Positions 1-31,213 of a stretch of 32,000 nt of DNA are shown piece by piece. The notes under the pieces are model-generated. The model did not search any database, was not told where the DNA came from, and saw only the letters and a list, made by a program, of their open reading frames with translations. Both the position numbers and the translations under genes were made by a program. Positions within the stretch are counted from its first letter, which is position 1. Each line of letters opens with the position of its first letter. Origin of the DNA: Thermodesulfobacteriota bacterium (GTDB taxonomy: Bacteria > Desulfobacterota > WTBG01 > JAGOGO01); NCBI GenBank assembly GCA_026625185.1, contig CP113000.1, positions 525,622 to 557,621 of the forward strand, given 5' to 3'.

Positions 1-332
1 TTGTCTGGGGTTATTGTTTGGTTATTTCGGGTTTTTGTCGGCCACGCCTCCTAACCAATCACTCCGGAATTAGGGATGGGAAATGCGTTGAAGGTTCGTT
101 CTCCGCTTGCACCCGATGAACCGGTGACGCTAATGCCTCAAAAAAGCTGTGGGAGCACGTCAAGTGCGCCGGGATAAACCAGCATGGACTATGGAATGAG
201 GAGGGAAAAGTGATAGGATTGGACAACGTGCCCAACCTTATGCTACAATAACTTTTAATGAGAATAAAACGATCGAGATAAAATTAATGGTATTGATTCA
301 GCTTCGCTTCTCGTTCGGCAGAAGGAAAAATA

Positions 333-485
333 ATGATAGAAATTCGCAAAGAACAACCTGATGAGGATATTCCTGTTATTCGGGTTATCAATGAACGAGA
401 TTTCAGACAGCCGCCCAAAACCAAACCGTTAGGCGACCCAGCATCCAAATCGAGAACACTCGGTCCCATTCTTTGTCGGACATGA
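333..485 (+). pseudogene. possible remnant of a GNAT-family N-acetyltransferase (N-terminal ~26 codons only)
   Basis: ATG at 333 is preceded by GAAGGA. The first ~26 codons (MIEIRKEQPDEDIPVIRVINERDFRQ) resemble the usual GNAT N-terminus (MIxIRxxxxxDxxxIxxIxxxAF). Similarity then stops and a stop codon follows at codon 51. This is a motif match from memory only. The antisense ORF 284-571 looks like noise. Confidence 0.25.
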
Positions 486-562
486 CGGAGGCGGTCATTA
501 GTGCAACCGTCTCTTTGCGTTAATTGACCACGGGGTAACATAGAAAGAAAAAAAGTGATTTC

Positions 563-2839
563 ATGGAACACGGCTCAACCAATTCAACAATTAATCGCAT
601 TGGGTTCATCGGCAACTACCTGCCGCGCCAGTGCGGCATCGCCACATTTACCACCGACTTATGTGAGGCCATAGCCGCCGAATTTGACGGCACAACGTGC
701 ATTGCCCTGCCCGTCAACGACCTCGATGCCGGCTATGCCTACCCGGCCCGCGTGCGCTTTGAACTGACGGAAAAGGATGTTGACTCCTACCGCCGCGCCG
801 CCGACTTCCTGAATATCAACAGCGTGGACCTGGTCTGCCTGCAACACGAATACGGCATTTATGGCGGACGGGCGGGCAGCCACATCCTGGCTCTCCTACG
901 TGAACTGCGCATGCCGATCGTTACGACTTTTCACACCATTCTGCATGATCCCGACCCCGATCAGCAACGGGTGCTGGAAGAAGTCGCAGCCCTGTCCGAC
1001 CGGTTGGTGGTCATGAGTGAGCGCGGCAGGGAATTCTTAGAAAAAGTTTATGGAATCCAGCCGGAGAAAATTGATTTTATCCCCCACGGCATCCCTGATG
1101 TGCCGTTTATGGACCCGAGTTTTCACAAAGACCTTTTTGGCGTCGAGGGCAAAACCGTCTTACTCAGTTTTGGTTTGCTCTCAGCGAACAAAGGGGTCGA
1201 AACGGTTATTGCCGCTCTGCCCGCCATTTTGGCCCGCCATCCGAACGTGGTCTACATCATCCTCGGCGCCACCCATCCTCAAGTCGTGCGGAACGAAGGC
1301 GAAACCTATCGGCTGTCTCTGCAATGGCTGGCCCATGAGAAAGGTGTGGAAGGTCAGGTGATTTTTTATAACCGCTTTGTCAGTTTGGAAGAACTGGTCG
1401 AGTTTATCGGCGCGGCGGATATTTACATCACCCCTTATCTCAACGAGGTCCAGATCACCTCGGGTACTCTGGCCTATACCCTGGGGGCGGGCAAGGCCGT
1501 GATTTCGACACCCTACTGGTATGCGGAAGAAATGCTGGCCGAAGAACGGGGAGCGCTGGTTCCCTTCCGCGACCCAGCGGCATTGGCTGAGCAAGTGATT
1601 GACCTGTTGGACAACGAGGCCAAACGCCACGCCATGCGCAAACGGGCGTATCTGTTCGGGCGAGCGATGGTCTGGCCTATCGTGGCCCGAAGCTACATGG
1701 AGAGTTTTAAACGCGCCCGGGACGAACGCCGTCATTTCACCCCGTCGGGCTTCGCCGTCAAACCGCTTGATAAACGTCCTAGTGAACTCCCCCCTCTCAA
1801 ACTCGATCATTTACACCTCATGACGGACGACACCGGCATGTTGCAACATGCCAGTTTCACGATACCCAACTATCGGGAGGGTTACAGCATCGACGACAAC
1901 GCCCGCGCCCTGATCGTGAGCACTCACCTTGAAGAACTGGGCAGCGGCGAGGCATTTAAACTGGCTTCTCGTTATCTCGCTTTCATCGGGTATGCCTTCA
2001 ATACTGAAACCGGGCGATTTCGTAACTTTATGGATTATCAGCGTAATTGGCTGGAAGAGAGCGGCTCCGATGACAGCCATGGGCGCGCGTTGTGGTCCTT
2101 GGGCACCGTCCTGGGCCGCTCTAACACGTCGGCCCTCCAGAGTATGGCCGGTTGGGTTTTCGAACAGGCATTGCCTGCCATTCTCAAGACCACCAGCCCC
2201 CGGGCCTGGGCCTTCGCCCTCATAGGTATCCATGAATATCTCAGGCGTTTTGAAGGGGACCGCAGGGCCAACCAGGTTCGGGATGAATTGGCCGGGCGAT
2301 TACTCACCTTATATAAAAACTGCTGTTCGAATGGATGGTGTTGGTATGAGACCGGGTTGACTTATTGCAATGCCGTTTTGCCGCAGGCCATGCTTATGTG
2401 CGGCCAATGGATCCCGGATAAGGCCATGACCGAAGCCGGACTGGAGTCGCTCCAATGGCTGGCCGACCTGCAGCGGGCCAACGCGGCCGGGGGTCATTTT
2501 GTCCCTATCGGCTCCAATGGCTTTTATCAGCGCGGCGGTGAGCAGGCCCGGTTCGATCAACAGCCGGTCGAGGCGCAAACCATGGCTTCCGCCTGTCTCG
2601 AAGCCTTTCGGAGTACCGGAGACGAACGCTGGCGCAAGGAGGCCCGCCGCGCCTTCGACTGGTTCCTCGGGCGCAACGACTTGAACCTCCCTCTTTACGA
2701 CCCGACAACGGGGGGTTGCCGGGACGGCCTCCATCCAGACCGCCCTAATGAAAATCAAGGCGCGGAGTCGACGCTGGCCTTTCTTCAAACCTTATTGGAA
2801 CTGCGTTTGGCTGAGAACACGCTTCAGCCTAGCGCTTAA
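563..2839 (+). CDS. two-domain glycosyltransferase: N-terminal GT4-type (GT-B fold) glycosyltransferase fused to a ~350-aa C-terminal helical, alpha/alpha-toroid-like domain
   Basis: 758-aa ORF ending 15 nt before the next gene. The N-terminal ~390 aa carry GT4-like hallmarks (IGFIGNYLPRQCGIATF, HEYGIYGG, SFGLLSANKG, ITPYLNEVQITSGTLAYTLGAGKAVISTP). Residues ~400-758 form a separate W/Y/A-rich helical region (DDNARAL, GRALWSLG, WAFALIG, NENQGAESTLAF). Its fold assignment is inference. Spot GC counts are 35/60 (661-720) and 37/60 (2581-2640), well above the rest of the window. Confidence 0.85.
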   Translation: MEHGSTNSTINRIGFIGNYLPRQCGIATFTTDLCEAIAAEFDGTTCIALPVNDLDAGYAYPARVRFELTEKDVDSYRRAADFLNINSVDLVCLQHEYGIYGGRAGSHILALLRELRMPIVTTFHTILHDPDPDQQRVLEEVAALSDRLVVMSERGREFLEKVYGIQPEKIDFIPHGIPDVPFMDPSFHKDLFGVEGKTVLLSFGLLSANKGVETVIAALPAILARHPNVVYIILGATHPQVVRNEGETYRLSLQWLAHEKGVEGQVIFYNRFVSLEELVEFIGAADIYITPYLNEVQITSGTLAYTLGAGKAVISTPYWYAEEMLAEERGALVPFRDPAALAEQVIDLLDNEAKRHAMRKRAYLFGRAMVWPIVARSYMESFKRARDERRHFTPSGFAVKPLDKRPSELPPLKLDHLHLMTDDTGMLQHASFTIPNYREGYSIDDNARALIVSTHLEELGSGEAFKLASRYLAFIGYAFNTETGRFRNFMDYQRNWLEESGSDDSHGRALWSLGTVLGRSNTSALQSMAGWVFEQALPAILKTTSPRAWAFALIGIHEYLRRFEGDRRANQVRDELAGRLLTLYKNCCSNGWCWYETGLTYCNAVLPQAMLMCGQWIPDKAMTEAGLESLQWLADLQRANAAGGHFVPIGSNGFYQRGGEQARFDQQPVEAQTMASACLEAFRSTGDERWRKEARRAFDWFLGRNDLNLPLYDPTTGGCRDGLHPDRPNENQGAESTLAFLQTLLELRLAENTLQPSA

Positions 2840-2854
2840 TATAAAGGACTGTCT

Positions 2855-4207
2855 ATGCGCATTGCGATGCTGTCACCGATTGCCTGGCGCACGCCACCGC
2901 GACATTACGGCCCCTGGGAAAGCGTGGTCTCTCTTTTGACCGAAGGGCTGGTCGCTCGCGGCTATGATGTTACCCTCTTTGCCACCGGTGATTCGGAAAC
3001 AAGCGGCAAGCTGCATGCCGTCTGCGCCCGGGGCTATGAAGAAGACCCCGCCATTCTGCCGAAAGTCTGGGAGTGCCTTCATATCTCGGAACTCTTTGAG
3101 CAGGCGAATGATTTTGATATTATTCATAATCATTTTGACTTTTTGCCCTTGACTTATAGCGGCCTTATTACCACCCCGTTCGTGACTACTATTCATGGCT
3201 TTTCATCGCCCAAGATTTTGCCTGTTTACAAAAAATATAACCACCAGGTATTTTATGTTTCCATCAGCGATGCCGACCGGTCTCCGGATCTTGAGTATAT
3301 CAAAACCATTCATCATGGAATAGATTTGAAACAGTTTGATTTTCAGCCCGACCCGGGCGATTATCTCCTCTTTTTCGGGCGCATTCACCCGGACAAGGGG
3401 GCCAGCGAGGCCCTTGAAATCGCCAGGGACTGCCATAAAAAGCTGATCATGGCCGGAATCATTCAGGACGAAGCCTACTATCACCAGTACGTCGAACCGC
3501 ACCTGAACGACCATAATGCGGTCTATGTCGGCAGCGTCGGGCCGGTTCAGCGAAACCAGCTGCTTGGAAAGGCATACGCGCTTCTGCACCCCATAAATTT
3601 CAATGAGCCTTTCGGCCTGTCCGTTGTAGAGTCTATGGCCTGCGGCACTCCCGTAATCGCCTTTGACCGGGGAAGCATGTCTGAACTGATCGAAGACGGC
3701 AAATCCGGTTTTCTCGTTTCCACTGTGGATGAGGCCATAAACACCGTGTACCGTATCAAAGATATTGATCGAGCCTGTTGTCGCCGTCGTGTTGAAGAGC
3801 ATTTCACAACTGACCGCATGGTTGAAGAATATATTCAGGTCTATGAAACGGTTCTTGAAAAAACGAAACGCGAAGAGCGCCGTCCCTGGGGCTATTATAA
3901 AATCCTGGCGGATGAGGATACTTACAAAAGCAAGGAAATAGTCGTTTTTCCGGACCGGCGCCTGAGCCTGCAGCGGCACCAGCGCCGGTCAGAACACTGG
4001 TATATCATTGACGGCCGGGCGCAGATAACTCTCGACGGTGAAACGATTGTACTTCTACCGGGGCAGTCCGTGGACATCCCCAAAGGCGCCCTGCACAGAA
4101 TCGCCAACCCGGGTTCTAAAAATGTGCGATTCATTGAAGTCCAAACCGGCGATTATTTCGGGGAGGATGATATTGAGCGTTTTGAGGATGATTTCGGAAG
4201 AGTCTGA
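2855..4207 (+). CDS. GT4-type glycosyltransferase fused to a C-terminal mannose-6-phosphate-isomerase type II (ManC C-terminal-like) cupin domain
   Basis: 450-aa ORF. Residues 1-~330 look like GT4 (MRIAMLSPIAW, FFGRIHPDKG, EPFGLSVVESMACGTPVIAF, GKSGFLV). Residues ~335-450 (RPWGYYKIL...LSLQRHQRRSEHWYIIDG...IPKGALHRIANPG...FIEVQTGDYFGEDDIERFEDDFGR) match the PMI/GMP cupin consensus (rPWG..., LSLQxHxxRxEHW, HRxxNPG, IEVQxGxYLgEDDIvRfeDxYGR) nearly motif for motif. Confidence 0.85.
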   Translation: MRIAMLSPIAWRTPPRHYGPWESVVSLLTEGLVARGYDVTLFATGDSETSGKLHAVCARGYEEDPAILPKVWECLHISELFEQANDFDIIHNHFDFLPLTYSGLITTPFVTTIHGFSSPKILPVYKKYNHQVFYVSISDADRSPDLEYIKTIHHGIDLKQFDFQPDPGDYLLFFGRIHPDKGASEALEIARDCHKKLIMAGIIQDEAYYHQYVEPHLNDHNAVYVGSVGPVQRNQLLGKAYALLHPINFNEPFGLSVVESMACGTPVIAFDRGSMSELIEDGKSGFLVSTVDEAINTVYRIKDIDRACCRRRVEEHFTTDRMVEEYIQVYETVLEKTKREERRPWGYYKILADEDTYKSKEIVVFPDRRLSLQRHQRRSEHWYIIDGRAQITLDGETIVLLPGQSVDIPKGALHRIANPGSKNVRFIEVQTGDYFGEDDIERFEDDFGRV

Positions 4208-4269
4208 AACATCTGCCGAGCTACCGGGCTGCAATAACAGCTTAAAATAATATTTGGTGACCTGTAATT

Positions 4270-5211
4270 ATGACTACTCAAGATCACATAGTAAAACGTT
4301 ATAAAAAAAATCCCATTCTCACAAAAGACGATGTCCCTTACCCTGTATCCACGGTCCACAATGCCGGCATCGTCAAGCACAACGGCCGCTACATTATGCT
4401 TTTCAGGTCGCACAGGCACAACGGTCGATCCATCATCGGCAGAGCCGACAGCGATGATGGTTTTTCCTTCACGGTTCATCCCGAACCCTTTCTCACACCG
4501 GCAAAGGACAACCTTTTTGCGGAATATGAAGAGTTCGGAGTCGAGGACCTTAGGATCTGTCCCGCAGAGGGCGACTACCTGCTCACCTACAGCGCGTATT
4601 CCCGTCACGGCGTTCGGATTGCCCTTGCGCGCACCAAGGATTTCAGAAAAGTTGAACGCGTTGCGCTTATAACCCAGGCCGACCATCGCAACGTCGTCAT
4701 TTTTCCCGTAAAGTTCGGTGGCCGGTATGCGCGTCTTGACCGGCCGCATTCCGAAATTTCACCTTGGTCTATCTGGATTTCTTATTCCCCCGACCTGGTT
4801 CACTGGGGCGATTCACGGGTGATTATGAAGCCGGTTCCTTATCACTGGGATGAAATGAAAATCGGGCCCGGCGCACCGCCCTTCAAAACCGACCAGGGCT
4901 GGCTGCATATTTATCATGGAGTGTTTAAGACTATGGCTGGTGCGGTGTATCGCCTTGGCGCGGCCCTGCTCGATCTTAATGATCCGGCAAAGATCGTCGG
5001 CGTTTCCGATCAGTGGATACTGCAGCCTGAAGCCCCCTGGGAGGTGAGCGGCTATGTGCCCAATGTTGTTTTTACATGCGGAGCTGTTCCTGAAGATGAC
5101 GGTACGGTAAAAATATACTGGGGCGGCGCGGATACGGTCATGTGCGTCGGCACGGCAGTGATTGATGACCTTATACAATTATGTCTTACAAATACCAGGC
5201 CGGCGCTGTAA
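4270..5211 (+). CDS. GH130-family glycoside phosphorylase/glycosidase (beta-mannoside phosphorylase-like; PH1107/TM1225 type)
   Basis: 313-aa ORF. It has a GH130-type beta-propeller signature: NPILT...NAGIVKHNGRYIMLFR, GVEDLRI (EDxR motif), DHRNVVIFP, RLDRP, KIGPGAPP, GWLHIYHGV, YRLGAALLDLNDP, GYVPNVVFTCG. Confidence 0.85.
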   Translation: MTTQDHIVKRYKKNPILTKDDVPYPVSTVHNAGIVKHNGRYIMLFRSHRHNGRSIIGRADSDDGFSFTVHPEPFLTPAKDNLFAEYEEFGVEDLRICPAEGDYLLTYSAYSRHGVRIALARTKDFRKVERVALITQADHRNVVIFPVKFGGRYARLDRPHSEISPWSIWISYSPDLVHWGDSRVIMKPVPYHWDEMKIGPGAPPFKTDQGWLHIYHGVFKTMAGAVYRLGAALLDLNDPAKIVGVSDQWILQPEAPWEVSGYVPNVVFTCGAVPEDDGTVKIYWGGADTVMCVGTAVIDDLIQLCLTNTRPAL

Positions 5212-5263
5212 AAAAGGCAACGGTACATTTTAAATTAGTTCATTTATAAAGGGACTTTATCTG

Positions 5264-6742
5264 ATGACAGAAAAAATACTATCGCATCCAAAAATTAAAC
5301 GTAAAAAGAAAATAATCCTGGGTGATACCTCACGCGTTATAACGCGCCCCCATATTCCCCTCGACGCGCATCGCATACCCAAAATCATTCAACGCGTAGT
5401 GGACTTGCCCGACACCACGGCCGAAAATCTTCTTTCACAAATAATGCTTGATTTTTCGGAGCGGCACAAAGACATTAGACGCGTTTTTGGGCTTCACCTG
5501 AATGAGGTAAAAGATTATGTTCCTCGGGATACCGTGCTCAGCGAGACCAAAAGGGCTCTTATCGGTGCCTATTTTACCATGGAGTACTCCATTGAATCGG
5601 CTGCCCTTTTTAACCCTTCAATCGTCCCACACCCTGATCAAAGCCATCTGAAGAAAGACAGCTTGCGCTTTATCATGAGCCTGCGGGCAATCGGCGAAGG
5701 CCATGTTTCCTCTATTGTATTTCGCAGCGGCGTCCTTGACCGGCACAATACGTTTATCTTCGGCCCGACCAGCGATTATGTCGAAAGGCCTGATCTCCAT
5801 TTAGACGCGGTTTACGACCGGCATCTCTTCCAACTGAAGCTTAACGAAATGACGGCCTGCAATGAGGTAACAACTCATATTCTTAATCAGTTGCCGGAAA
5901 ATTTTACCTATAATGAATTAAAAGAAAAAAATGAAGCGCTTAGCTCACACCCCCTTTTCCCTGAGGCGCGTCAAAACGAAACCTTCGAAACCATGTACTG
6001 GCTTGCCAATTCCAATTATGAGATGAGTTTCCGAACCGATCATAGAATATCCGAACGGGTTATCTTTCCGGTTTCTGAAAATGAAAGCAGAGGCATTGAA
6101 GACGCCCGGTTCGTGCAATTTTTTGATGACAACGGTGAGGTTACCTATTATGCGACCTATACGGCTTATAACGGCTTTAGAATCCTGCCGCAGCTGATTG
6201 AAACAAAGGATTTTATCAAATTTAAGATAATGACCCTCAACGGCAAAGTAGTACAAAACAAGGGCATGGCTCTTTTCCCGCGTAAAATCGACGGCAACTA
6301 CGTTATGCTTTCGCGCCAGGACGGTGAAAACAATCATATAATGTTTTCAGACAATATCCATTTCTGGCAGGAGTCCGAAATCATCCAGGAGCCAAGATAT
6401 CCCTGGGAATTCATTCAGATCGGCAACTGCGGCTCCCCCCTGGAAACCGATAAAGGCTGGATCGTACTCACCCACGGTGTCGGGCCCATGCGTCAGTATT
6501 GCATTGGCGCCATGCTGCTTGATCTTGAAAACCCGGCCAGAATCATCGCCCGCCTGGAAGAGCCGTTACTTACTCCGCAGAAGGAAGAGCGCGAGGGGTA
6601 TGTCCCTAATGTCGTTTATACCTGCGGCGCGATTTTCCATAATAGCGACTTGGTCATTCCCTATGGCATGTCTGATATTGCATGCGGCATTGCAACTGTT
6701 AAGGTAAGTGAATTAATTAACTGCATGCAACCGGTGGCTTGA
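5264..6742 (+). CDS. GH130-like beta-propeller protein with a ~260-aa N-terminal extension of unknown function
   Basis: 492-aa ORF. The C-terminal ~230 aa parallel the preceding gene (GIEDARFVQF, NKGMALFPRKI, GNCGSPLETDKGWIVLTHGVG, YCIGAMLLDLENP, GYVPNVVYTCG). I recognise no family in the N-terminal ~260 aa. Confidence 0.75.
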   Translation: MTEKILSHPKIKRKKKIILGDTSRVITRPHIPLDAHRIPKIIQRVVDLPDTTAENLLSQIMLDFSERHKDIRRVFGLHLNEVKDYVPRDTVLSETKRALIGAYFTMEYSIESAALFNPSIVPHPDQSHLKKDSLRFIMSLRAIGEGHVSSIVFRSGVLDRHNTFIFGPTSDYVERPDLHLDAVYDRHLFQLKLNEMTACNEVTTHILNQLPENFTYNELKEKNEALSSHPLFPEARQNETFETMYWLANSNYEMSFRTDHRISERVIFPVSENESRGIEDARFVQFFDDNGEVTYYATYTAYNGFRILPQLIETKDFIKFKIMTLNGKVVQNKGMALFPRKIDGNYVMLSRQDGENNHIMFSDNIHFWQESEIIQEPRYPWEFIQIGNCGSPLETDKGWIVLTHGVGPMRQYCIGAMLLDLENPARIIARLEEPLLTPQKEEREGYVPNVVYTCGAIFHNSDLVIPYGMSDIACGIATVKVSELINCMQPVA

Positions 6743-7031
6743 TGATCCTGGGATGCGTTCATGATGCGGCGTGACATTGCCCTCAGTCTTGGTTTGGAGT
6801 GCCGCCGCTTTGACATAGAGGCTGAAATCACCGCCAAATTACTGCGGGCATTGTTGAAATACTGGAGATGGAAGCCACCCGCACAATAATACTTTTGAGT
6901 GAATTTGACGACGCGATGTAGATACCGACAAAATATTAAACGAGATTGATTTCCCTCGCCAGGACCTGACTTTGGTGTTATTTAAAACGGCGATACCGTG
7001 CAACCGTTGACCCATAACAGTAATAAAAGGC

Positions 7032-7067
7032 AAAAAAAATCCCCACAAGGAAGCGGGGATTTTTTTC
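7032..7067. terminator. bidirectional rho-independent terminator-like hairpin
   Basis: The sequence is AAAAAAAATCCCC-acaaggaagc-GGGGATTTTTTT. A 6-bp ATCCCC/GGGGAT stem is flanked by an A-run on the left and a T-run on the right, so it reads as stem plus U-tract on either strand. It lies 28 nt past the stop of the minus-strand sORF and is the first terminator-like structure after the plus-strand glycan operon. Confidence 0.55.
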
Positions 7068-7094
7068 TTCTTAAGGAGCAGTTTTGTGTCATGC

Positions 7095-7175
7095 TCAGGA
7101 CTGAATACAGCAGCCCCCTTCAGAACAACAGGAACAATGGGCTACCCGACGTAACATGAATCTTTTTCTTTGCAT
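7095..7175 (-). CDS. unannotated 26-aa basic/Cys-rich small ORF (MQRKRFMLRRVAHCSCCSEGGCCIQS)
   Basis: It falls below the ORF-track size cutoff. The minus strand reads AAAGGAGGTGAACTTT-ATG, a consensus Shine-Dalgarno with ~8-nt spacing. The ORF is 26 codons and ends in TGA. It sits between the zinc-ribbon gene (stop at 7277) and the terminator at 7032-7067, with no terminator upstream of it. Confidence 0.4.
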   Translation of the reverse strand: MQRKRFMLRRVAHCSCCSEGGCCIQS

Positions 7176-7276
7176 AAAGTTCACCTCCTTTCCCCCTTTG
7201 GCCTCCAACAAAATATTATTTCAGATAAGGCTGGGTTTTAAAAAGTCAAGACCCTCCTGGAAAAAGCGAAACCCCT

Positions 7277-7657
7277 TTAATCTTTTTTAAATAACTCCCT
7301 TATCGCCTGAGACTGTTGATATTTTTTTAACGATTTTTGGTATTCAAGCCACGCCTGCCACATCTCTTTCCATTCCTGGTTGTGCCAGGGTATGTTTTTC
7401 GTTTCGAGACCGGTTATTGAACGCTTATACTCTTCATATTCCTCAGCGCAGGTGGGGCATAAATTAAAAGGGAGATCAGAACAAAAAGTACAAAAAGTGG
7501 GGGCAGTCACCATGACCCCACACCGGGAACACCTCAGCCGGCAAGAAGAACAAAGGATTATCTTCTGCACTGTTTCAATCTGAAGCTTTTGATCTTCCTC
7601 CAGTTTTTTCTGCTTTTCTAATTCAATATGATTTTGGATATTGATTACTTTAGACAT
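7277..7657 (-). CDS. hypothetical coiled-coil protein with four CxxC motifs (double zinc-ribbon-like)
   Basis: 126-aa ORF. It carries CSSC-x3-CSRC-x9-CTFC-x7-CPTC, flanked by K/E/Q-rich helical segments. I recognise no family. Confidence 0.65.
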   Translation of the reverse strand: MSKVINIQNHIELEKQKKLEEDQKLQIETVQKIILCSSCRLRCSRCGVMVTAPTFCTFCSDLPFNLCPTCAEEYEEYKRSITGLETKNIPWHNQEWKEMWQAWLEYQKSLKKYQQSQAIRELFKKD

Positions 7658-7733
7658 TTTTCAAAACACTCTTTTAAAAGGCATAAGGATTCAGAATAAA
7701 AACCTCTGCACTTTTATAGTGGAAATTGTTTTT

Positions 7734-7762
7734 ATTTTATCAGAAAAAAAATGAATCGTCAA
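7734..7762 (-). promoter_or_regulatory. sigma70-like promoter: TTGACG, 17-nt spacer, TAAAAT
   Basis: The minus strand reads TTGACG (7762-7757), attcattttttttctga (17 nt), TAAAAT (7739-7734), about 75 nt upstream of the ATG at 7657. The -35 hexamer lies in a flank that resembles the right terminus of the adjacent repeat. Confidence 0.45.
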
Positions 7763-7766
7763 ATTT

Positions 7767-8019
7767 GATGAATCCGTAAAAAGTCAAAAATCAGACGGCA
7801 CAGTAAAAAGCTTCAGATGCAAGGAGCGCAAATCCGACGGAATGAGGCGTACTTACCTGTACGCCGCAAATGATTCACCCCGTTAAATAAAGAATTTTCG
7901 GAGATCGGCAACTCAGAACCCGAAACCTTACGTTGGATTCTTTCTGCCTCCCGAAGCGAATATTTAACGGGGCAGGGATGCAGCGGAACGCCGCAGATGA
8001 ACTTTTTACGAAGCCGTCA
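7767..8019 (+). repeat. structured mosaic intergenic repeat, long copy 1 (253 bp)
   Basis: It starts GATGAATCCGTAAAAAGTCAAAAATCAGACGG and ends GATGAACTTTTTACGAAGCCGTCA. Its core modules are shared with 23322-23629 and 29371-29690: the GGCGTAC-ttacct-GTACGCC hairpin at 7846-7865, and the 11-bp stem CCCCGTTAAAT (7878-7888) pairing with ATTTAACGGGG (7962-7972). Its right end is 4 nt from the mutM stop codon. Confidence 0.85.
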
Positions 8020-8023
8020 AATT

Positions 8024-8866
8024 TCACTTTTGGCAGTGAGTACAGAAAGAAGCGCTTCGTCCCCCAACGCGCATACTTTTTATCGTTGTCCCGCAAGAGA
8101 AACAAGGTTTCCCTCGTCGCTGATAGACTTTAAGCTTTTTCTGAAATTTCCCCACCTTACCCAATCCATCCCGATAGCGTTTATCAGCTGCGGTAGTGCC
8201 CCGATTGTCAATAGCGTCTTTTAAGATTTTCCTGATCGAGCGGTGAAGACGTTTTATGTCATCCTCATCTAAAGTATTGGCAAGACGAGTAGGATGAATT
8301 TTCGCGTTAAAAAGGATTTCGTCGCTATAAATGTTCCCTATTCCCGCGATGCTTTTTTGATCCAGTAAAAGTGTTTTTATGACCCGCCGTGACTTTTGAA
8401 GGATGCGGGTAAGGCACGTTATGGAAAAGTCCTTTTCCAAAGGTTCCGGGCCCAAGCGGTCTAAAGTTAAGGGAGAAGATTGGAGAGAAGGAAGTTTAAG
8501 GAATATCTCACCAAATTTGCGAGGATCAATAAAACGAAGTTCTGTGCCGTTATTAAAATGAAAAACCGCTCGAGTATAGGGTTCGTAAGGGGTCCCCGTT
8601 TTTTTTAACCGCAACTGGCCGGACATCCCCAGGTGCATTACCAAACTTTTGGAAGGGATGAGGTAAAAAACCAAGTACTTAGCGCGTCGTCTAAGGAATT
8701 GAATCTTTGTTCCTTTGAGTTCCTTAATAAAATCCGGTGTGGAATGAAACCTGCGGAGAATTCTTATGTTTGAGTCAAGGGGGAAACTTACATTGGTTAT
8801 TATCTTACCAATTACCTTTGGAGCAAGATCATTTTTTATGGTTTCTATTTCGGGAAGCTCAGGCAT
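8024..8866 (-). CDS. mutM: formamidopyrimidine-DNA glycosylase (Fpg/MutM)
   Basis: 280 aa. It has the N-terminal MPELPEIE catalytic motif, an H2TH region, and a C-terminal zinc finger (CFSCG...FCTHCQK). Confidence 0.93.
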   Translation of the reverse strand: MPELPEIETIKNDLAPKVIGKIITNVSFPLDSNIRILRRFHSTPDFIKELKGTKIQFLRRRAKYLVFYLIPSKSLVMHLGMSGQLRLKKTGTPYEPYTRAVFHFNNGTELRFIDPRKFGEIFLKLPSLQSSPLTLDRLGPEPLEKDFSITCLTRILQKSRRVIKTLLLDQKSIAGIGNIYSDEILFNAKIHPTRLANTLDEDDIKRLHRSIRKILKDAIDNRGTTAADKRYRDGLGKVGKFQKKLKVYQRRGKPCFSCGTTIKSMRVGGRSASFCTHCQK

Positions 8867-9006
8867 AGTTTAGTAGGAATTTATTGGTTTGTTCGTTCCA
8901 CCGGGGGTGGCCGCAACCCCATCGGGTAGCCTTTAGCGCTGAATCCGTTTTTGTTGTGGTTAAAAAAATACGTATTATGCCGCATGAAAACAAATTCTCA
9001 AATTTT

Positions 9007-9327
9007 TTAAAGGAGCTGAATCGTGGGAGAGGTGAACGCTGAACTTTGCTTTTGTTGAGATTGATTTTTTAATTCCTGAGATTTTTGCTCAATTTCACGG
9101 AGTTGTTTTGCCAGGCGTTTTTCGCGAAAGTGTTTTTTTATTAAAAGGGGAAGAGAAAAAATTGACACAATAACGGCGCCGATTAAGACGGAACCGAGAA
9201 TTACTGCTATTTGGGAAGTCTCAAAATGCCAGAGCAAAAATTTAACCTCCAGCGGCTTTCCATTTTGTAAAGCGAAAATAGTTATTCCTAAAATCATTAA
9301 AAAGCTTAAAACTAAAGGTAAATACAT
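9007..9327 (-). CDS. LapA-domain (DUF1049-like) small inner-membrane protein
   Basis: 106 aa with two TM helices. The pattern IFALQNGKPLEVKFLLWHFETS and a basic/coiled C-terminal tail are typical of the LapA-domain family. Confidence 0.65.
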   Translation of the reverse strand: MYLPLVLSFLMILGITIFALQNGKPLEVKFLLWHFETSQIAVILGSVLIGAVIVSIFSLPLLIKKHFREKRLAKQLREIEQKSQELKNQSQQKQSSAFTSPTIQLL

Positions 9328-9434
9328 TTTCTGTCCCGTGGTGGGAAAATTATTTTTTTAAATATTTAAGCGATTCGTTAACCGCTCCCTATAGGCAAGG
9401 CATGTAAATTATGAAGAATGAGGCGCACCGGCAT

Positions 9435-10640
9435 TCAGACGCAGACGATGTCGATTGGTATGTCGGTAATCCTCTCAAGACAGTTTTTTCTCACAATGAA
9501 ATCGACCTCGATCCCTATGGCCCCCTCACCCGGGAAAACGAACTTGGGCTCGAAGGCAAAGACCATACCTTCCTTGAGAATCTGACTATGTCGTTGGGTT
9601 ATGAACGGCAGTTCGTTAATTTCAAGCCCCAAACCATGGCCGATAAAGGATACCTGCCCTTCCCCGTGCCCCAGGAAGTGCTCTTCCATACCTGACTTCT
9701 TAACCAACTGGTAGGCTCTCTTGAAAAGCTCCGTCGTGTTGACCCCGACTTTGCCGAAGTTCGACGCGTCTTCCACGATCTCTCGCGCAATCTCATAAGG
9801 CTTTTTGAACAGCTCTTTCAGTTCACCAACCACGAACACTCTCGTCTCGTCGGTGATGTAGCCGTTATAGGTGCCGCCGTAATCCACGATGACCGGAATG
9901 CCGCGCTTTACCTTGAGAAAAGACGATCCCTGGGCAATGGCAGGGTTGACGCCGGTGCCGGCGATGGAAATATCCGCATAAGAGGCAATGCCGCTCGTGT
10001 AGCCGGCGGTGACGGTTATTGCACCCGCCATCTCCTGGTTGAACCCGCGCATCCTTAGGATTCCCTGGTGGCCTTGCCTCCTCCCCTCTGCAATAAGGAT
10101 GGAATCAATTTCTATCTCGGTGACGCCTTCCCGGACTGCCTCCCTTGCCCGCTCGAAGACGCGGGAGACGATTGCTCCCGATTTCCTCATCTGCACCAGT
10201 TCGTAGGGACTCTTAACTGCCCTCAGTTCCCTGATGATGGGAGAGAGGTCTGCAAATTTGTCAAAACCGACGATGCTCTTAAACCGCTCGACGAGTGCGA
10301 AAGGAACCACGTCCAGTTCCATACCGCCTGTTCCTTTCAGTATTTTTTTCTCTTTGAGCGTTTTTTTTACATCCCTGTCGCTACTTATGGGAATGATATC
10401 GAGGGACGTATCCAGCTTTGCCCTGGCAATGCTCTTTTGTATAAAGAGGAGGGGTTCGCAGTCAAGAGCGATAACGAGCATGCCCTTCTGGATGGTGCCG
10501 GAGAAATAAAACATATCGGTATTCTGCAGGATGACGGCAAAATCGATACCCTGCTCCGCCATCATAGCCTTGATGCCGTCGATTCTCCTGATGAGTTCCT
10601 CTTTGCTGACCGGATCAAACGCCCCAAGTTGCTGCAACAT
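9435..10640 (-). CDS. M24-family metallopeptidase (Xaa-Pro aminopeptidase/dipeptidase-like)
   Basis: 401 aa with a creatinase-like N-domain. All five M24B metal-ligand positions are present (VDYGG, TDETR, IGHGLG, AFEP, GIEVD). The usually conserved second-shell His in GLExHE reads EINE here, i.e. Asn. Confidence 0.88.
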   Translation of the reverse strand: MLQQLGAFDPVSKEELIRRIDGIKAMMAEQGIDFAVILQNTDMFYFSGTIQKGMLVIALDCEPLLFIQKSIARAKLDTSLDIIPISSDRDVKKTLKEKKILKGTGGMELDVVPFALVERFKSIVGFDKFADLSPIIRELRAVKSPYELVQMRKSGAIVSRVFERAREAVREGVTEIEIDSILIAEGRRQGHQGILRMRGFNQEMAGAITVTAGYTSGIASYADISIAGTGVNPAIAQGSSFLKVKRGIPVIVDYGGTYNGYITDETRVFVVGELKELFKKPYEIAREIVEDASNFGKVGVNTTELFKRAYQLVKKSGMEEHFLGHGEGQVSFIGHGLGLEINELPFITQRHSQILKEGMVFAFEPKFVFPGEGAIGIEVDFIVRKNCLERITDIPIDIVCV

Positions 10641-19182: not shown

Positions 19183-19881
19183 ATGTCAATTCTAAACCGT
19201 TCAACAGCGGAGTTTATCGGGACATTCTGGCTTGTCTTTGGCGGCTGCGGTAGCGCCGTGCTCTCAGCCGCCTTCCCGGATTTAGGCATTGGTTTTCTGG
19301 GCGTTGCCCTGGCTTTCGGTTTAACCGTATTGACGATGGCGTATGCTATCGGCCATATTTCCGGATGTCATCTCAACCCGGCGGTCTCAGTGGGCCTTTG
19401 GGCAGGAAAGCGGTTTTCAGCAGGTGATCTGCTTCCCTATATCATTGCCCAGGTTGCGGGCGCCGTTGTCGCAGCCGGTGTCCTCTATCTTATTGCCAGC
19501 GGAAAAACCGGTTTTGATCTAAGCGCGGGATTTGCCTCAAACGGTTATGGTGAACACTCTCCCGGTGGTTATCCCCTCTCCTCTGCCCTGATTGCTGAAA
19601 TGGTTCTTACCTTTATGTTTCTTTTCATTATCTTAGGAGCTACTGATGATCGTGCACCCAAAGGATTTGCCCCCATAGCTATTGGCCTGGGGTTGACGCT
19701 CATTCATCTCATTGGTATCCCGGTTACCAATACCTCGGTTAACCCGGCGCGGAGCACGGGTCCGGCTCTTTTTGTCGGGGGTTGGGCATTAAAACAGCTG
19801 TGGCTTTTCTGGGTTGCTCCGATCGCGGGTGCGATCCTGGCTGGTTTAATCTACCGGCTGGTGAGTGGAGAAAAGAAGTAG
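19183..19881 (+). CDS. aqpZ: aquaporin Z
   Basis: 232 aa. AAAGGAGG lies upstream. It has the [19 protein letters not shown]-terminus and two NPA boxes ([13 protein letters not shown]). Confidence 0.93.
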
Positions 19882-19898
19882 CATAAAAAAGGCTTTTC

Positions 19899-19968
19899 GG
19901 AATTACAGGAGGTGATACCAGGTCTCTTTAAGAAATTAGCGCCTCTTAGTTCCGGGATATTTTTTTTT
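19899..19968 (+). terminator. possible aqpZ terminator (long imperfect stem plus T9)
   Basis: GGAATTACAGGAGGTG (19899-19914) pairs with CGCCTCTTAGTTCC (19940-19953): about 12 Watson-Crick and 2 G-U pairs with 2 bulges. A T9 run follows at 19960-19968 after a 6-nt gap. The geometry is atypical, so confidence is low. Confidence 0.35.
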
Positions 19969-19995
19969 GGACTCAATGCAAGGGAGGGAAAAGCT

Positions 19996-21498
19996 ATGGA
20001 AACCATCATGAATCAATTTACTCAGTTAACCGGGTCATACATTCCCAGGCTTCTGGGTGCCCTGGTGATCCTGGTTGTCGGGTGGCTCGTCGCCATCCTT
20101 ATTACGGGAGCAATCCGAAAGGTTTTAATTCACTTCAAGTTGGACTCTCATCTCACCCGCTGGACAAGCGGAGGGGGGAAAGAAGAGCCGATCGCTGCCC
20201 GTTTTATTGCCAAGCTTATGTTCTATGTGATTATGCTTTTTGTCATTGTGGCCACGTTTGAAGCCCTCGGCATAACCCTTATCACCCAGCCCATAAACAC
20301 TCTCCTGAACGAATTACTTGCCTTCGCTCCACAACTGCTCGGTGCCCTTTTGCTGGCGATCGTGGCCTTTATCGTTGCCAAGGCTTTTCAGATCGTTGTA
20401 GCAAAAGGGTTGGGTGCTTTGAAGATGGATGAACAGCTCGAGGGTAAGGCTGGGATCAAGGCTGGGAAACAGCCTCTGGCCCAATCACTTTCCAACGGGA
20501 TTTTCTGGTTGGTGTTGCTGCTCTTTCTCCCGGCAATCCTGAGCACGCTGGGTGTGGAAGGGTTGCTTAAACCGGTCCAGGGGATGGTAGAAAAAATTCT
20601 TGCTTTTTTACCAAACATCTTCACCGCGGTGGTTATCGTTTTGCTGGGCTGGCTTCTTGCCCGCATGGTGCAGAGAATTGTGACCAATTTCTTTGAAGCC
20701 ATCGGCACTGACCGGTTAAGCGAGAAAGTCGGCATGGCCTCAGCCATGGGAAAGAAAAAGCTTTCCAGCGTTCTGGGGATGCTGGTCTATATTCTGATCT
20801 TGATTCCCATCCTGGTGGCAGCGCTGAATGCCCTTGCTTTGGAAGCGATTACCCAGCCGGCCAGCAAGATGCTTGAAATGATCCTCATGGCGATCCCCAA
20901 CGTTTTTGCTGCCCTGCTTATTCTTATTATCTCCTATATGATCGGCCGTGTGTTAGCAGGCCTGGTTGCCAGCATCCTCGAAGGAGCCGGGTTTAATTCT
21001 GTCCTGGCCCGGCTGGGCATCGGTGATGAGATTCCGGCTGACAAAAAATGGACACCGGCAATCGTGATCGGCAATATCGTGCTCATTGGCATTATGTTGT
21101 TTGCGTTTATCGAGGCGGTCAACCGGCTCGGATTTGCCAAAATGGCGGATATGCTTGCAGGCTTTACGGTCCTGGCAGGTCAGGTAATCCTGGGGCTGGT
21201 TATTTTTGGTGTTGGCCTCCTTCTGGCCAAACTGGTTTCCAAAGCAATTTTGTCCACTGCTCCAGCGCAGGCATCAGTCCTGGCCATGACCGCACGGATT
21301 GCAATCATGGTTCTGGCCGGCGCTATTGCGCTGCGTCAAATGGGACTGGCGAATGAGATTATTAGCCTGGCGTTTGGTCTGATCATTGGCGCAATCGCCC
21401 TTGCTCTGGCTTTAGCTTTTGGCATTGGTGGACGTGAAACCGCGGCTAAAGAACTGGAGGATTGGGTAAAGTCAATGAAAACAAAAACAGGCAAGTAA
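19996..21498 (+). CDS. multi-pass membrane protein with conserved TM-helix repeats (CmpX-like, mechanosensitive-channel related)
   Basis: The ORF track opens at GTG 19912, which overlaps an AGGAGG and is not a credible start. The ATG at 19996 has GGGAGGG 7 nt upstream. About 500 aa, with repeated units of the type P-x-LLGALxILxxGWLxA. Confidence 0.75.
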   Translation: METIMNQFTQLTGSYIPRLLGALVILVVGWLVAILITGAIRKVLIHFKLDSHLTRWTSGGGKEEPIAARFIAKLMFYVIMLFVIVATFEALGITLITQPINTLLNELLAFAPQLLGALLLAIVAFIVAKAFQIVVAKGLGALKMDEQLEGKAGIKAGKQPLAQSLSNGIFWLVLLLFLPAILSTLGVEGLLKPVQGMVEKILAFLPNIFTAVVIVLLGWLLARMVQRIVTNFFEAIGTDRLSEKVGMASAMGKKKLSSVLGMLVYILILIPILVAALNALALEAITQPASKMLEMILMAIPNVFAALLILIISYMIGRVLAGLVASILEGAGFNSVLARLGIGDEIPADKKWTPAIVIGNIVLIGIMLFAFIEAVNRLGFAKMADMLAGFTVLAGQVILGLVIFGVGLLLAKLVSKAILSTAPAQASVLAMTARIAIMVLAGAIALRQMGLANEIISLAFGLIIGAIALALALAFGIGGRETAAKELEDWVKSMKTKTGK

Positions 21499-28413: not shown

Positions 28414-29319
28414 TTATAAACCTGATGGCTTGTCCTTCGCTTGTATGACCACATTCAAGGGAGGCGCCTCGCTCTGTTTATCCTTTCCCAGGAATAAGGT
28501 TAGATGGGGGAAAGGGATCTCGATGTTTTTTTCATCAAATTTTATCTTAAGCCGTCGGTTAAATTCCCGAGCAACACGCCATTGTTTACCTGGCTTGGTT
28601 TTAGTGCGCGCCTTGATGATAACCGATGAGTCCCCGAATTTATCCAAACCAAAAATCTCAATCGGTTCGAAAATATCATCGTGATAGTCTGGATCAGAGC
28701 GAAGAGCTTCATCCACTCCCTTGATTACATCAAAGACCTCATCAACATCCTCACGATAGGCAATGCCGATTTCCAATAGAAAATAAGAATAATCCTTGGT
28801 CTTGTTGGTAACGAGGTTAATTTGCCCGTTAGGAATGTAATGGACATTGCCCGACATATCTCGGAGTATGGTCATTCGTAAATTGATCTTTTCCACCACC
28901 CCGTCTTTACCCGCAATTTCAATCACATCGCCCACGCGAATTTGATCTTCAAAGAGAATAAAAAAACCACTGATAAAATCCTTGACCAAACCTTGAGCGC
29001 CAATCCCAACCGACAACCCAACAACTCCCGCTGCGGTTAGCACCGGGCCGATGGCAATTCCCACCTCCCCCATAACCATAATAGTCGCAACAATAATGAT
29101 AATAATGTTGAAAAAATGCCGGATAACGGAACCCAGGGTTTCAGTCCGTTTTTGAAATTCAATATCGTCTTTGCGTCGCTGAACTACTGAAAATAAACGG
29201 CGTGCCAAGATCTTCGCCGCCTTAAGGGCAATGAGAGCTAAAACGATAATCAAAAGAATCCGTACCCCATGAGAAAGCAACCACGAAGAAATTTCTTTAA
29301 GATAAACATTAATATCCAT
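28414..29319 (-). CDS. MscS-family small-conductance mechanosensitive channel
   Basis: The track start at 29340 is a TTG. The ATG at 29319 has AAGGAG 6 nt upstream. About 301 aa with three N-terminal TM helices and the MscS beta-domain signature (RVGDVIEIAGKDGVVEKINLRMTILRDMSGNVHYIPNGQI). Confidence 0.9.
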   Translation of the reverse strand: MDINVYLKEISSWLLSHGVRILLIIVLALIALKAAKILARRLFSVVQRRKDDIEFQKRTETLGSVIRHFFNIIIIIVATIMVMGEVGIAIGPVLTAAGVVGLSVGIGAQGLVKDFISGFFILFEDQIRVGDVIEIAGKDGVVEKINLRMTILRDMSGNVHYIPNGQINLVTNKTKDYSYFLLEIGIAYREDVDEVFDVIKGVDEALRSDPDYHDDIFEPIEIFGLDKFGDSSVIIKARTKTKPGKQWRVAREFNRRLKIKFDEKNIEIPFPHLTLFLGKDKQSEAPPLNVVIQAKDKPSGL

Positions 29320-29370
29320 TCTTGACTCCTTGGCTCTCAAATATCAATAGAAAGAACTCATCTCGATCTT

Positions 29371-29690
29371 GATGAATCCGTAAAAAGTCAAAAATCAGAC
29401 GGCACAGCGGTAGGGACACGTTGCAACGTGTCCCTACATCAGATGCCTGTCTTCGATCGTTGCTCGGAGGCAAGGCGCGCCTGTCTTTGAGCTTCGCTCG
29501 GAGGCAAATCCGACGGAATGAGGCGTACTTTACCTGTACGCCGCAATGATTCACCCCGTTAAATAAAAATTGGAGATCGGCAACTAAGAACCCGAACCCT
29601 TACCTTGGCTTTTCTGCCTCCGGAAGCAAACATTTAACGGGGCAGGGGATGCAGCGGAACGCAGCAGATGAACTTTTTACGAAGCCGTCA
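29371..29690 (+). repeat. structured mosaic intergenic repeat, long copy 3 (320 bp)
   Basis: It has the same termini and core as the other long copies. It also contains a nested 28-bp perfect palindrome, GTAGGGACACGTTGCAACGTGTCCCTAC (29410-29437). A 29-nt unit is tandemly duplicated with a 34-nt period (29445-29473 and 29479-29507). Its last 3 nt (TCA) are the malQ stop codon on the other strand. Confidence 0.85.
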
Positions 29691-31181: not shown

Positions 31182-31213
31182 GATGATTTTTTCCTCATAC
31201 CATTTTCACTCAC

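Follow-up and report, generated by a model that had tools for sequence, protein, structure and literature searches.

Organization of the four-gene locus

A stretch of 32,000 nucleotides (the window; positions 525,622 to 557,621 of contig CP113000.1, labelled Thermodesulfobacteriota bacterium), which lies within a 615-kb metagenome contig and whose nearest relatives carry the labels delta proteobacterium or Thermodesulfobacteriota, encodes a group of four co-directional open reading frames (ORFs) for putative enzymes of mannoside metabolism. These ORFs, P1 (563-2839, 758 amino acids), P2 (2855-4207, 450 amino acids), P3 (4270-5211, 313 amino acids) and P4 (5264-6742, 492 amino acids), are located on the + strand, as are all domains within them, and are separated by gaps of 15, 62 and 52 nt. 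An earlier note, made from the nucleotide sequence, had described them as an operon of a GT4 glycosyltransferase, a GT4 glycosyltransferase fused to a cupin and two GH130 proteins, with cytoplasmic synthesis and phosphorolysis of a mannoside as the proposed function; coordinates and gaps were reproduced exactly, and the four family calls hold in Pfam and NCBIfam. Signal-peptide-like or transmembrane-like segments are found in none of the four proteins, and the database names of all module proteins are generic. A literature search for the gene set, for the P1 family or for a pathway of such composition found nothing, in line with the earlier note, which knew of no characterized bacterial pathway with exactly this composition, although a partly similar cluster exists in Thermoanaerobacter X-514 (see below). 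None of the conditions which the earlier note named as refuting its proposal was realized.

P1 and a GH130 protein form the conserved unit

A scan of one genome per species identified 586 stretches which encode relatives of P1. Among these, the best 80 loci, picked by similarity to the P1 of the window, show 60-93% identity and carry labels from many phyla, namely Chloroflexota, Acidobacteriota, Bacteroidota/Ignavibacteria, Zixibacteria, KSB1, delta proteobacteria, Planctomycetota, Verrucomicrobiota-type, Fibrobacteria and others, whereby the phylum names of many loci are labels of metagenome bins and may be mislabelled; Leptospira ainlahdjerensis and Anaerolinea thermolimosa are cultured members. 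Directly downstream of P1, 66 of these 80 loci encode a GH130 protein of approximately 315 amino acids, designated c1, which is about 39% identical to P3, while no other neighbour is conserved across the 80 loci. Over 56 complete pairs, the median pairwise identity is 73% for P1 and 72% for c1, with a correlation of r 0.72, which shows that P1 evolves in step with its partner. Identity within phylum labels (74%) equals that between labels (73%), which fits frequent horizontal transfer. Among 1.8 billion representative proteins, the two-domain architecture of P1 (approximately 750-790 amino acids) is present in all of the best 150 clusters at 50% identity, down to 36% identity to P1. Four P1 members of 36-47% identity were sampled and all four have an adjacent GH130 gene, and the P1-GH130 pairing is seen from 93% down to 36% P1 identity. 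A fusion of P1 with GH130 was looked for among the longer members of the P1 family and rejected, the extra regions being TPR repeats or regions of no assignment.

The co-conservation of the neighbourhood, a check proposed in the earlier note, was confirmed. In at least nine other loci, which belong to different phyla and have unrelated flanks, the same four kinds of gene lie side by side, so the four-gene arrangement is not due to chance. This form occurs without the cupin in a delta proteobacterium (L004) and in Pontiella (L048), with an inserted phosphoglucomutase/phosphomannomutase (PGM/PMM) gene in L084, with an extra c1-type gene in L086, and with the cupin in the cultured strain NaphS2 (L087), in bins labelled Spirochaetes (L088), Gammaproteobacteria (L089) and Planctomycetota (L090). 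In permuted order, GT4, GH130, long GH130 and P1 are encoded at 4545-10271 of the conjugative plasmid pILYOP02 of Ilyobacter polytropus (L099), with IS256 and recombinase genes bordering them at one end and a type I restriction-modification system at the other end. Other module combinations, P1 with a P4-type GH130, P1 with a P2-type GT4 and c1, and P1 with a P2-type GT4 and a P4-type GH130, are found on plasmids of cultured Alphaproteobacteria, Deinococcus and one Bacteroidota strain. Thus, the four-gene unit of the earlier note recurs, but the conserved unit is P1 plus GH130, a widespread and horizontally mobile two-gene core, which can be extended by optional parts such as a second GT4, the cupin and a further GH130. 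The companions of P1 are nearly always a GH130 (c1, P4-type or P3 together with P4), often a P2-type GT4 and sometimes a hexose-interconversion enzyme. A search for phage carriage of the system gave no match.

The P1 of the window belongs to a very conserved clade usually paired with c1. In L087, L088 and L090, P2, P3 and P4 are 74-86% identical to those of the window, but P1 shares only 57-59% in its N-terminal and 49-51% in its C-terminal domain, which suggests module swapping between variants. In L089 (6755-8994), the two domains of P1 are encoded by separate overlapping ORFs of 388 (GT-B) and 358 (six-hairpin) amino acids just 3' of an IS240-type transposase gene, which represents either a natural split or a frameshift.

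P1 joins an atypical GT4-like domain to a six-hairpin domain

The N-terminal domain of P1 (residues 1-395, positions 563 to 1747) is GT-B/GT4-like with non-canonical active-site residues. Pfam places GT4-type domains at residues 25-363, and nothing past residue 400 approximately, with 68.7 bits for Glycos_transf_1, 60.3 bits for Glyco_trans_1_4 and 45.4 bits for Glyco_transf_4, all over the cut-off; weak relatives in the Protein Data Bank (PDB) are PimA, MshA and SPS. While P1 is thus a GT4-type protein by its GT-B fold and hidden Markov model (HMM) matches, alignment to PimA and MshA reveals that it is devoid of the diphosphate-binding Arg of the motif G-R-x..K-G and of both Glu residues of the motif E-x7-E. 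Over 52 divergent family members, for which residue conservation was scored, the position of the diphosphate-binding Arg is Leu205 in 46, and the E-x7-E positions are Gln297 in 50 and Tyr305 in 43, while Lys210 is retained and Cys24, His95 and His124 are invariant. Cys24 is part of a loop P-R-x-C-G-I-A-T-F, located where GT4 enzymes normally carry a Gly-rich loop, and Glu96 next to His95 is invariant too. As the Arg and both Glu residues are gone family-wide, use of a nucleoside diphosphate (NDP)-sugar by P1 cannot be assumed; of the two NDP-sugar-dependent GT4 enzymes of the earlier note, P2 is canonical (see below), but P1 is GT4 by fold. The rewritten donor-binding residues make new enzymology likely.

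One way to read this loss is that the GT-B domain of P1 is, like the trehalose phosphorylase of family GT4, a retaining, sugar-1-phosphate-dependent enzyme, which shares a pool of alpha-mannose-1-phosphate with the inverting GH130 protein, whereby alpha- and beta-mannosides would be interconverted or polymerized without NDP-sugars. Lys210 is kept in the P1 family where the Arg and both Glu residues are lost, the GT4 family contains a natural phosphorylase (PMC10913872, PMC7660257), and P1 is obligatorily paired with a phosphorylase-type gene. However, this reading is purely inferential, and the residue loss could equally indicate another mode of NDP binding, another donor or a non-catalytic role. 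We regard it as very unlikely; the reading preferred here, the build-up of an endogenous mannoside and its recovery by phosphorolysis, is weighed below.

The C-terminal domain of P1 (residues approximately 396-758, positions 1748 to 2839) matches no Pfam family at E<=10. The earlier note had predicted a toroid-like domain at residues 400-758, and an AlphaFold2 model of residues 396-758 bears this out, as it is all-helical with approximately 12 helices (pTM 0.76, mean pLDDT 67, a moderate confidence), and all significant Foldseek matches are (alpha/alpha)6 proteins. The top match, with E 1e-6, is 7TEM, an uncharacterized Yersinia protein (YPO2471), on which no literature was found; it is the sole sequence relative of the domain with a structure (phmmer E 9e-7) and has the motifs G(Y/V)S-IDD-ARA and N-N-GAEST in common with it. 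The next matches, GH9, cellobiose-2-epimerase/AGE, GH76 and GH105, show approximately 10-15% identity. Some of the 52 divergent members match weakly the HMMs of GH88, C5-epim_C, GH127, GH76, GH9 and GH47, all of which are (alpha/alpha)6 families. An (alpha/alpha)6 barrel is hence supported by the model and its structural matches, while the named (alpha/alpha)6 families, among them GH76, GH9, GH88/105, AGE, GH63 and GH15, are matched neither by an HMM score above threshold nor by their catalytic residues.

Conserved polar motifs of the domain are TDDTG..QHA, GY.xDDNARA, WxW(F/Y)E, DQQPxEA, GGCxDGL and NxNQGAEST, with D422, H429, D444, D445, R448, E596, Q666, Q667, D721 and E735 among the conserved polar residues, which look like an active site. 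These conserved residues are mainly acidic with one His. AGE and cellobiose 2-epimerase enzymes use a multi-His catalytic set. An AGE-type epimerase role of the domain was rejected on account of its single conserved His. A kinship with the beta-1,2-glucan-active (alpha/alpha)6 families was dismissed as well, since the first 50 Foldseek matches include none of them.

P2 is a canonical GT4 enzyme fused to a cupin

The N-terminal domain of P2 (residues 1-338, positions 2855 to 3868) is a canonical, glucosylsucrose-synthase-like GT4 domain, which matches Pfam above the cut-off and shares 43% identity with TeGSS (7FG9/8X3U; E 4.6e-81) over its whole length. TeGSS is an alpha-1,2-glucosyltransferase using UDP-glucose, which according to mutagenesis requires Tyr18 and Arg179 (PMC9909042). 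P2 keeps Tyr18, Arg176, which corresponds to TeGSS Arg179, and E251-x7-E259, with the diphosphate-binding Arg and Lys in the motif FGR176IHPDK181G. TeGSS acts on sucrose in cyanobacteria and, in contrast to P2, has no cupin domain; the 43% identity does not fix the donor or acceptor specificity of P2.

The C-terminal part of P2 (residues 336-445, positions 3860 to 4207, up to the stop codon) is a class II phosphomannose isomerase (PMI)-type cupin, matched by PF01050 (MannoseP_isomer) at residues 336-445 with E 4.6e-35 and a score of 120.7 bits (cut-off 23.6); the match spans positions 7-116 of the 116 positions of the profile. The region also matches Cupin_2, while TIGR01479 (GMP_PMI) is matched solely over its C-terminal part, positions 344-466 of 467. 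Its sequence RPWG...LSLQRHQRRSEHW...HRIANPG appears to fit the class II PMI motif. The GT4-cupin fusion is present in at least 120 protein clusters of 70-88% identity.

P3, P4 and c1 are predicted beta-mannoside phosphorylases

P3 (positions 4270 to 5211) is a full-length, short GH130 protein (PF04041, E 2.5e-56), predicted to be a beta-mannoside phosphorylase, with TM1225 (E 2.6e-59) and Teth514_1788 (E 8.6e-52) as its PDB relatives. P4 is composed of two parts. Its C-terminal part (residues 263-489, positions 6050 to 6742, up to the stop codon) matches PF04041 with E 3.1e-35 over these residues only, corresponding to profile positions 84-319, and is related to Teth514_1788 (E 3.8e-35) and Teth514_1789 (E 4.1e-31). 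The N-terminal region of P4 (residues 1-262, positions 5264 to 6049) has no Pfam match even at E<=10, but residues 10-170 approximately are 36-44% identical in distant P4-type proteins, which indicates a real domain. Neither permissive Pfam searches nor hhalign against the c1 family (probability 0.35%) found the missing first GH130 blade in it, and the AlphaFold2 model of P4 was unusable (pLDDT 43, pTM 0.27). P3, P4 and c1 score below every NCBIfam equivalog cut-off.

The roles of GH130 residues are taken from a 2025 study which examined Uhgb_MS and Teth514_1788 by structure and mutagenesis (PMC12814180), and residues were assigned by alignment to solved enzymes. In P3, Glu92-Asp93, Arg140, Arg158, Lys197 and His216 align with Uhgb_MS E136/D137, K184, R202, R242 and the conserved His. 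P4 keeps Glu279-Asp280, Lys333, Arg351 and His404, and has an invariant Gln385 at the position of R242. The catalytic Asp of P3 (Asp93), P4 (Asp280) and c1 (in GIEDPR) aligns with D137 and is in all three preceded by Glu, the residue of the beta-1,2/1,3 type, in contrast to the Tyr of beta-1,4 enzymes. The phosphate-binding basic positions, for which the earlier note had proposed a check in both GH130 proteins, are all retained in P3 (R140/R158/K197/H216) and in c1 (K/R/K/H), but only three of the four in P4. At the 'phosphorylase switch', a position of either His or Arg, P3 (R158), P4 (R351) and c1 all have Arg. With the catalytic Asp, the switch Arg and the His retained, P3, P4 and c1 are predicted to be beta-mannoside enzymes of the phosphorylase type, not hydrolases. 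Whether Gln385 makes P4 lean towards transferase or phosphorylase activity is ambiguous, since R242A lowers the transferase activity of Uhgb_MS more than its phosphorylase activity (PMC12814180).

With respect to linkage, Glu/Lys (Uhgb_MS E136/K184) marks beta-1,2 and Tyr/Arg marks beta-1,4 GH130 enzymes (PMC12814180). The specificity pair, which bears on a placement in the beta-1,2-specific CAZy subfamilies GH130_4 and GH130_6, is Glu/Lys in c1 and P4 and Glu/Arg in P3. Judged by these residues, P3, P4 and c1 are probably beta-1,2-type enzymes. As beta-1,2-specific GH130 enzymes show weak glycosyltransferase activity with GDP-mannose (PMC12814180), the three proteins may also use this donor.

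Gene neighbourhoods point to mannose or mannose phosphate

Four kinds of enzymes for the interconversion of hexoses or hexose phosphates stand beside the core and have been recruited independently in different lineages: the class II PMI cupin in the window, PGM/PMM in L084, a class I PMI with overlapping ORFs in Devosia and an AGE-family epimerase directly after P1 and GH130 in Rhizobium daejeonense. These recruitments are the strongest contextual evidence for mannose or mannose phosphate as the currency of the pathway and strengthen the mannose link proposed in the earlier note.

PMI, PMM and AGE neighbours would also suit the catabolism of released mannose or mannose-1-phosphate, and the system might serve salvage, whereby imported beta-mannosides, for example fungal or microbial beta-1,2-mannooligosaccharides, are converted to mannose-1-phosphate, which feeds glycolysis or GDP-mannose synthesis. 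The nearest characterized GH130 proteins are the phosphorylases Teth514_1788/1789, which are clustered with a GT4 and a mannose-1-phosphate guanylyltransferase, and the distant locus L094 has SusC/SusD genes approximately 2 kb upstream. These genes are, however, the nearest exception, as no transporter, including solute-binding proteins, and no secreted hydrolase such as a glycosidase is encoded in or directly beside the cluster in the window, the other four-gene clusters and the further loci examined. Furthermore, one or two transferase-type genes are always there and are the most conserved part, although a purely degradative route needs none. Salvage is therefore considered unlikely.

Alternatively, the GT4 enzymes, together with GH130 proteins acting as GDP-mannose-dependent beta-mannosyltransferases, could build an envelope glycoconjugate, be it a surface glycolipid, the glycan of a glycoprotein or an exopolysaccharide. 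Envelope glycans are often made by GT4 enzymes, the source annotations read 'glycosyltransferase involved in cell wall biosynthesis', and the weak transferase activity of beta-1,2-specific GH130 enzymes would fit. On the other hand, these annotations are generic and were assigned automatically, and in none of approximately 100 loci does the module stand together with genes for a flippase, a polymerase, a polyprenyl-phosphate transferase, an acyltransferase or export. Furthermore, P1 to P4 are all soluble, without a transmembrane segment, and the phosphate-binding residues which define phosphorylases are kept. Such an envelope function appears quite improbable.

A proposed cytoplasmic system for an endogenous mannoside

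With transporter, secreted hydrolase and envelope genes absent from the module and its direct surroundings in the loci examined, and transferase-type genes always present, endogenous synthesis and turnover fits best. In the preferred reading, to which we assign a probability of about 0.55, the cytoplasmic operon would build an endogenous mannose-containing glycoside or oligosaccharide and recover it by phosphorolysis, whereas catabolic salvage, envelope synthesis and the paired phosphorylases described above are less well supported. Cluster content and active-site residues support the cytoplasmic synthesis and phosphorolysis proposed in the earlier note, but the product, its linkage and the other substrates, the direction of flux, the physiological role and the action of either P1 domain are what we infer. 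P3 and P4, which bear a signature of the beta-1,2 type, would reversibly attach beta-linked mannose to a glycoside or oligosaccharide inside the cell or remove it, using phosphate and alpha-mannose-1-phosphate and possibly also GDP-mannose. P2 would transfer an alpha-hexose from an NDP-sugar to an acceptor or primer, its fused PMI-type cupin might connect mannose-6-phosphate with fructose-6-phosphate, and P1 would build and/or process the glycan scaffold through its atypical GT-B and six-hairpin domains. The product might be an endogenous mannose-containing reserve or stress protectant, which phosphorolysis would mobilize without ATP.

Several points weigh against this proposal. A GT4 enzyme makes alpha-linkages while GH130 proteins act on beta-mannosides, so the same bond is not simply made and broken. 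Unless the enzymes have other roles than proposed, the product must be composite, probably an alpha-glycoside scaffold which carries a beta-mannosyl unit or chain. The loss of the diphosphate-binding Arg and both E-x7-E Glu residues counts in the same direction, as P1, GT4-like by fold, might not be a transferase at all. The PMI activity of the P2 cupin, detached from a nucleotidyltransferase domain, is an assumption, the specificity signature of P3 is mixed (Glu with Arg), P4 has Gln of ambiguous effect at one phosphate-contacting position, and no characterized member of the system was found in the literature. Finally, stress, dormancy or low-oxygen genes beside distant pairs are a hint of a reserve or protectant role, but are anecdotes: three BON genes, Usp, HSP20 and DUF2267 in L095, CsbD, cydABX-cydDC for cytochrome bd and Crp/Fnr in L096, and pentose-phosphate genes (tkt, tal-pgi, gnd, zwf) with ackA-pta and Crp/Fnr in L098.

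GH130 phosphorylases have mostly been viewed as tools to consume external mannans. Here, a GH130 enzyme is tied to a partner of the transferase type, and the mobile module which they form is self-contained, lacks a transporter and extends across many phyla; this suggests a metabolite or reserve that contains mannose and is endogenous. The system is mannoside-phosphorylase-based and includes an uncharacterized, strongly conserved partner protein and two conserved domains without a family, the six-hairpin domain of P1 and the N-terminal region of P4. Cultured carriers make the question testable, among them Ilyobacter polytropus, Novosphingobium pentaromativorans US6-1, Sphingomonas sanxanigenens NX02, Devosia neptuniae, Anaerolinea thermolimosa, a Leptospira species and strain NaphS2.

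Relation to known systems

The closest characterized cluster is that of Thermoanaerobacter X-514, which encodes two GH130 beta-1,2-mannoside phosphorylases, a GT4, a mannose-1-phosphate guanylyltransferase, an ABC importer and a GH5 enzyme and has been proposed to salvage external mannan (PMC4264767). Two adjacent GH130 genes, whose products are the nearest characterized relatives of P3 and P4, a GT4 and a mannose-1-phosphate enzyme in a co-directional cluster, and cytoplasmic enzymes are the likenesses. Unlike the Thermoanaerobacter cluster, the window and its sister loci have no transporter or GH5 gene in or beside the cluster; that cluster, in turn, lacks a P1-type protein, a long N-extended GH130 and a GT4-cupin fusion, and the scores of P3 and P4 fall far short of the NCBIfam equivalog cut-offs set for its enzymes.

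For a transporter-less GH130 system, the best functional analogy is the mannogen cycle of Leishmania, in which a beta-1,2-mannan is synthesized from GDP-mannose or mannose-1-phosphate, stored inside the cell and mobilized by phosphorolysis. The five-bladed propellers of its enzymes, which are GT108 mannosyltransferases/phosphorylases, and of the bacterial GT108 protein AsGT are related to GH130. The window proteins, however, are GH130 and not GT108, and mannogen involves no GT4 or six-hairpin partner. To our knowledge, no mannogen-like reserve has been demonstrated in bacteria. P1 and GH130 might nevertheless form a nucleotide-sparing, mannogen-like system in many phyla, in which P1, whose GT-B domain is devoid of the NDP-binding residues and may itself use a sugar-1-phosphate, primes the glycan, the six-hairpin domain processes it and GH130 polymerizes and depolymerizes a beta-mannan or beta-mannoside on mannose-1-phosphate. 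This extension of the analogy is rather improbable; if true, horizontal transfer would have spread a so far unrecognized carbon reserve or stress protectant of the cytoplasm.

Cyclic beta-1,2-glucan synthase (Cgs) combines a transferase, an (alpha/alpha)6 cyclase and a GH94 phosphorylase and may be seen as the best architectural analogy, since here too a transferase domain is fused to an (alpha/alpha)6 domain and would cooperate with a phosphorylase of the inverting type on a glycan in the cytoplasm. The families are, however, all different, the phosphorylase is a separate gene in the window, and the bonds differ, as GT4 is retaining and GH130 acts on beta-mannosides. Membership of either the mannogen cycle or Cgs is excluded by family.

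In the mannan catabolism of Bacteroides and Ruminococcus, cellobiose 2-epimerase, an (alpha/alpha)6 enzyme of the AGE family, works together with mannosylglucose phosphorylase (GH130). The AGE gene which follows P1 and GH130 in Rhizobium daejeonense and the AGE folds among the Foldseek matches of the P1 C-terminal domain resemble this route, but the GH130 proteins of the window carry the Glu of the beta-1,2 type and not the Tyr of the beta-1,4 type. The mannosylglucosylglycerate (MGG) pathway was likewise considered and rejected. Its genes are those for GpgS, MggA and MggB. MggA and MggS of R. baltica are described as GT4-type Leloir transferases, MggA with 530 amino acids and other partners (PMC3736172); a membership of MggA in GH130 was not supported, and no paper linking MGG to GH130 was found. 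Neither NCBIfam nor Pfam matched a GpgS or phosphatase-type gene in the cluster.

Signals and surroundings of the operon

Promoter-like and terminator-like sites were scanned, the latter over positions 1-7700 of the window. The top promoter-like score (10/12) is that of a sigma-70-like candidate at 220 to 249 (+ strand; TGGACA-18-TACAAT with a TG extension), approximately 310 nt 5' of P1, a match to the consensus alone, which is not functional evidence. The best terminator-like site is the hairpin at 7032-7067, palindromic with a 15-pair stem, an A-run and a T-run, which the earlier note had named as the first terminator-like hairpin. It sits between convergent genes ending at 6742 (+) and 7277 (-) and could, being palindromic, terminate both; it is likely an intrinsic terminator which acts in both directions and closes the operon. 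The three gaps between the genes are free of terminator-like sites, in agreement with the earlier claim of no internal terminator, but this is weak evidence alone, as such sites (10 found) are not more common than in shuffled sequences (10.3 expected).

The GC content decreases along the operon, being 0.569, 0.512, 0.524 and 0.467 in P1 to P4, respectively, and that of the window is 0.458; at third codon positions, P1 reaches 0.66 and an M24 peptidase gene elsewhere in the window 0.65. As other genes of the window vary equally, GC content gives no clear sign of recent acquisition.

Convergent to the operon, a Cys-rich ORF of 126 amino acids (7277-7657, - strand; CSSC...CSRC...CTFC...CPTC) without a Pfam family is kept beside it in the identical contigs L001 and L003. 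In loci of the Ignavibacteria type, in NaphS2 and in a Planctomycetota bin (L033, L040, L054, L057, L061, L068, L069, L072, L075, L087 and L090), B12-binding radical-SAM genes are found a few kb from P1, which may reflect lineage synteny rather than a functional link. At a distance of 12-22 kb from the operon, the window encodes functions of osmotic homeostasis, an aquaporin (MIP) directly 5' of a 528-amino-acid protein with mechanosensitive-channel TM-helix repeats (19183-21498) and, farther along, an MscS-type channel (28414-29340). At 29688-31999 (-), a GH77 4-alpha-glucanotransferase gene (MalQ) stands beside a DUF3536 ORF of at least 261 amino acids, which runs to the window end; these are genes of alpha-glucan metabolism and by position unrelated to the mannoside cluster. 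Many long ORFs overlap P1 to P4 on the opposite strand or in other frames, among them 284-571 (-), 1181-1810, 3203-3979 and 4153-4749, and most likely do not code for proteins but are shadows cast by the GC-rich coding frames.

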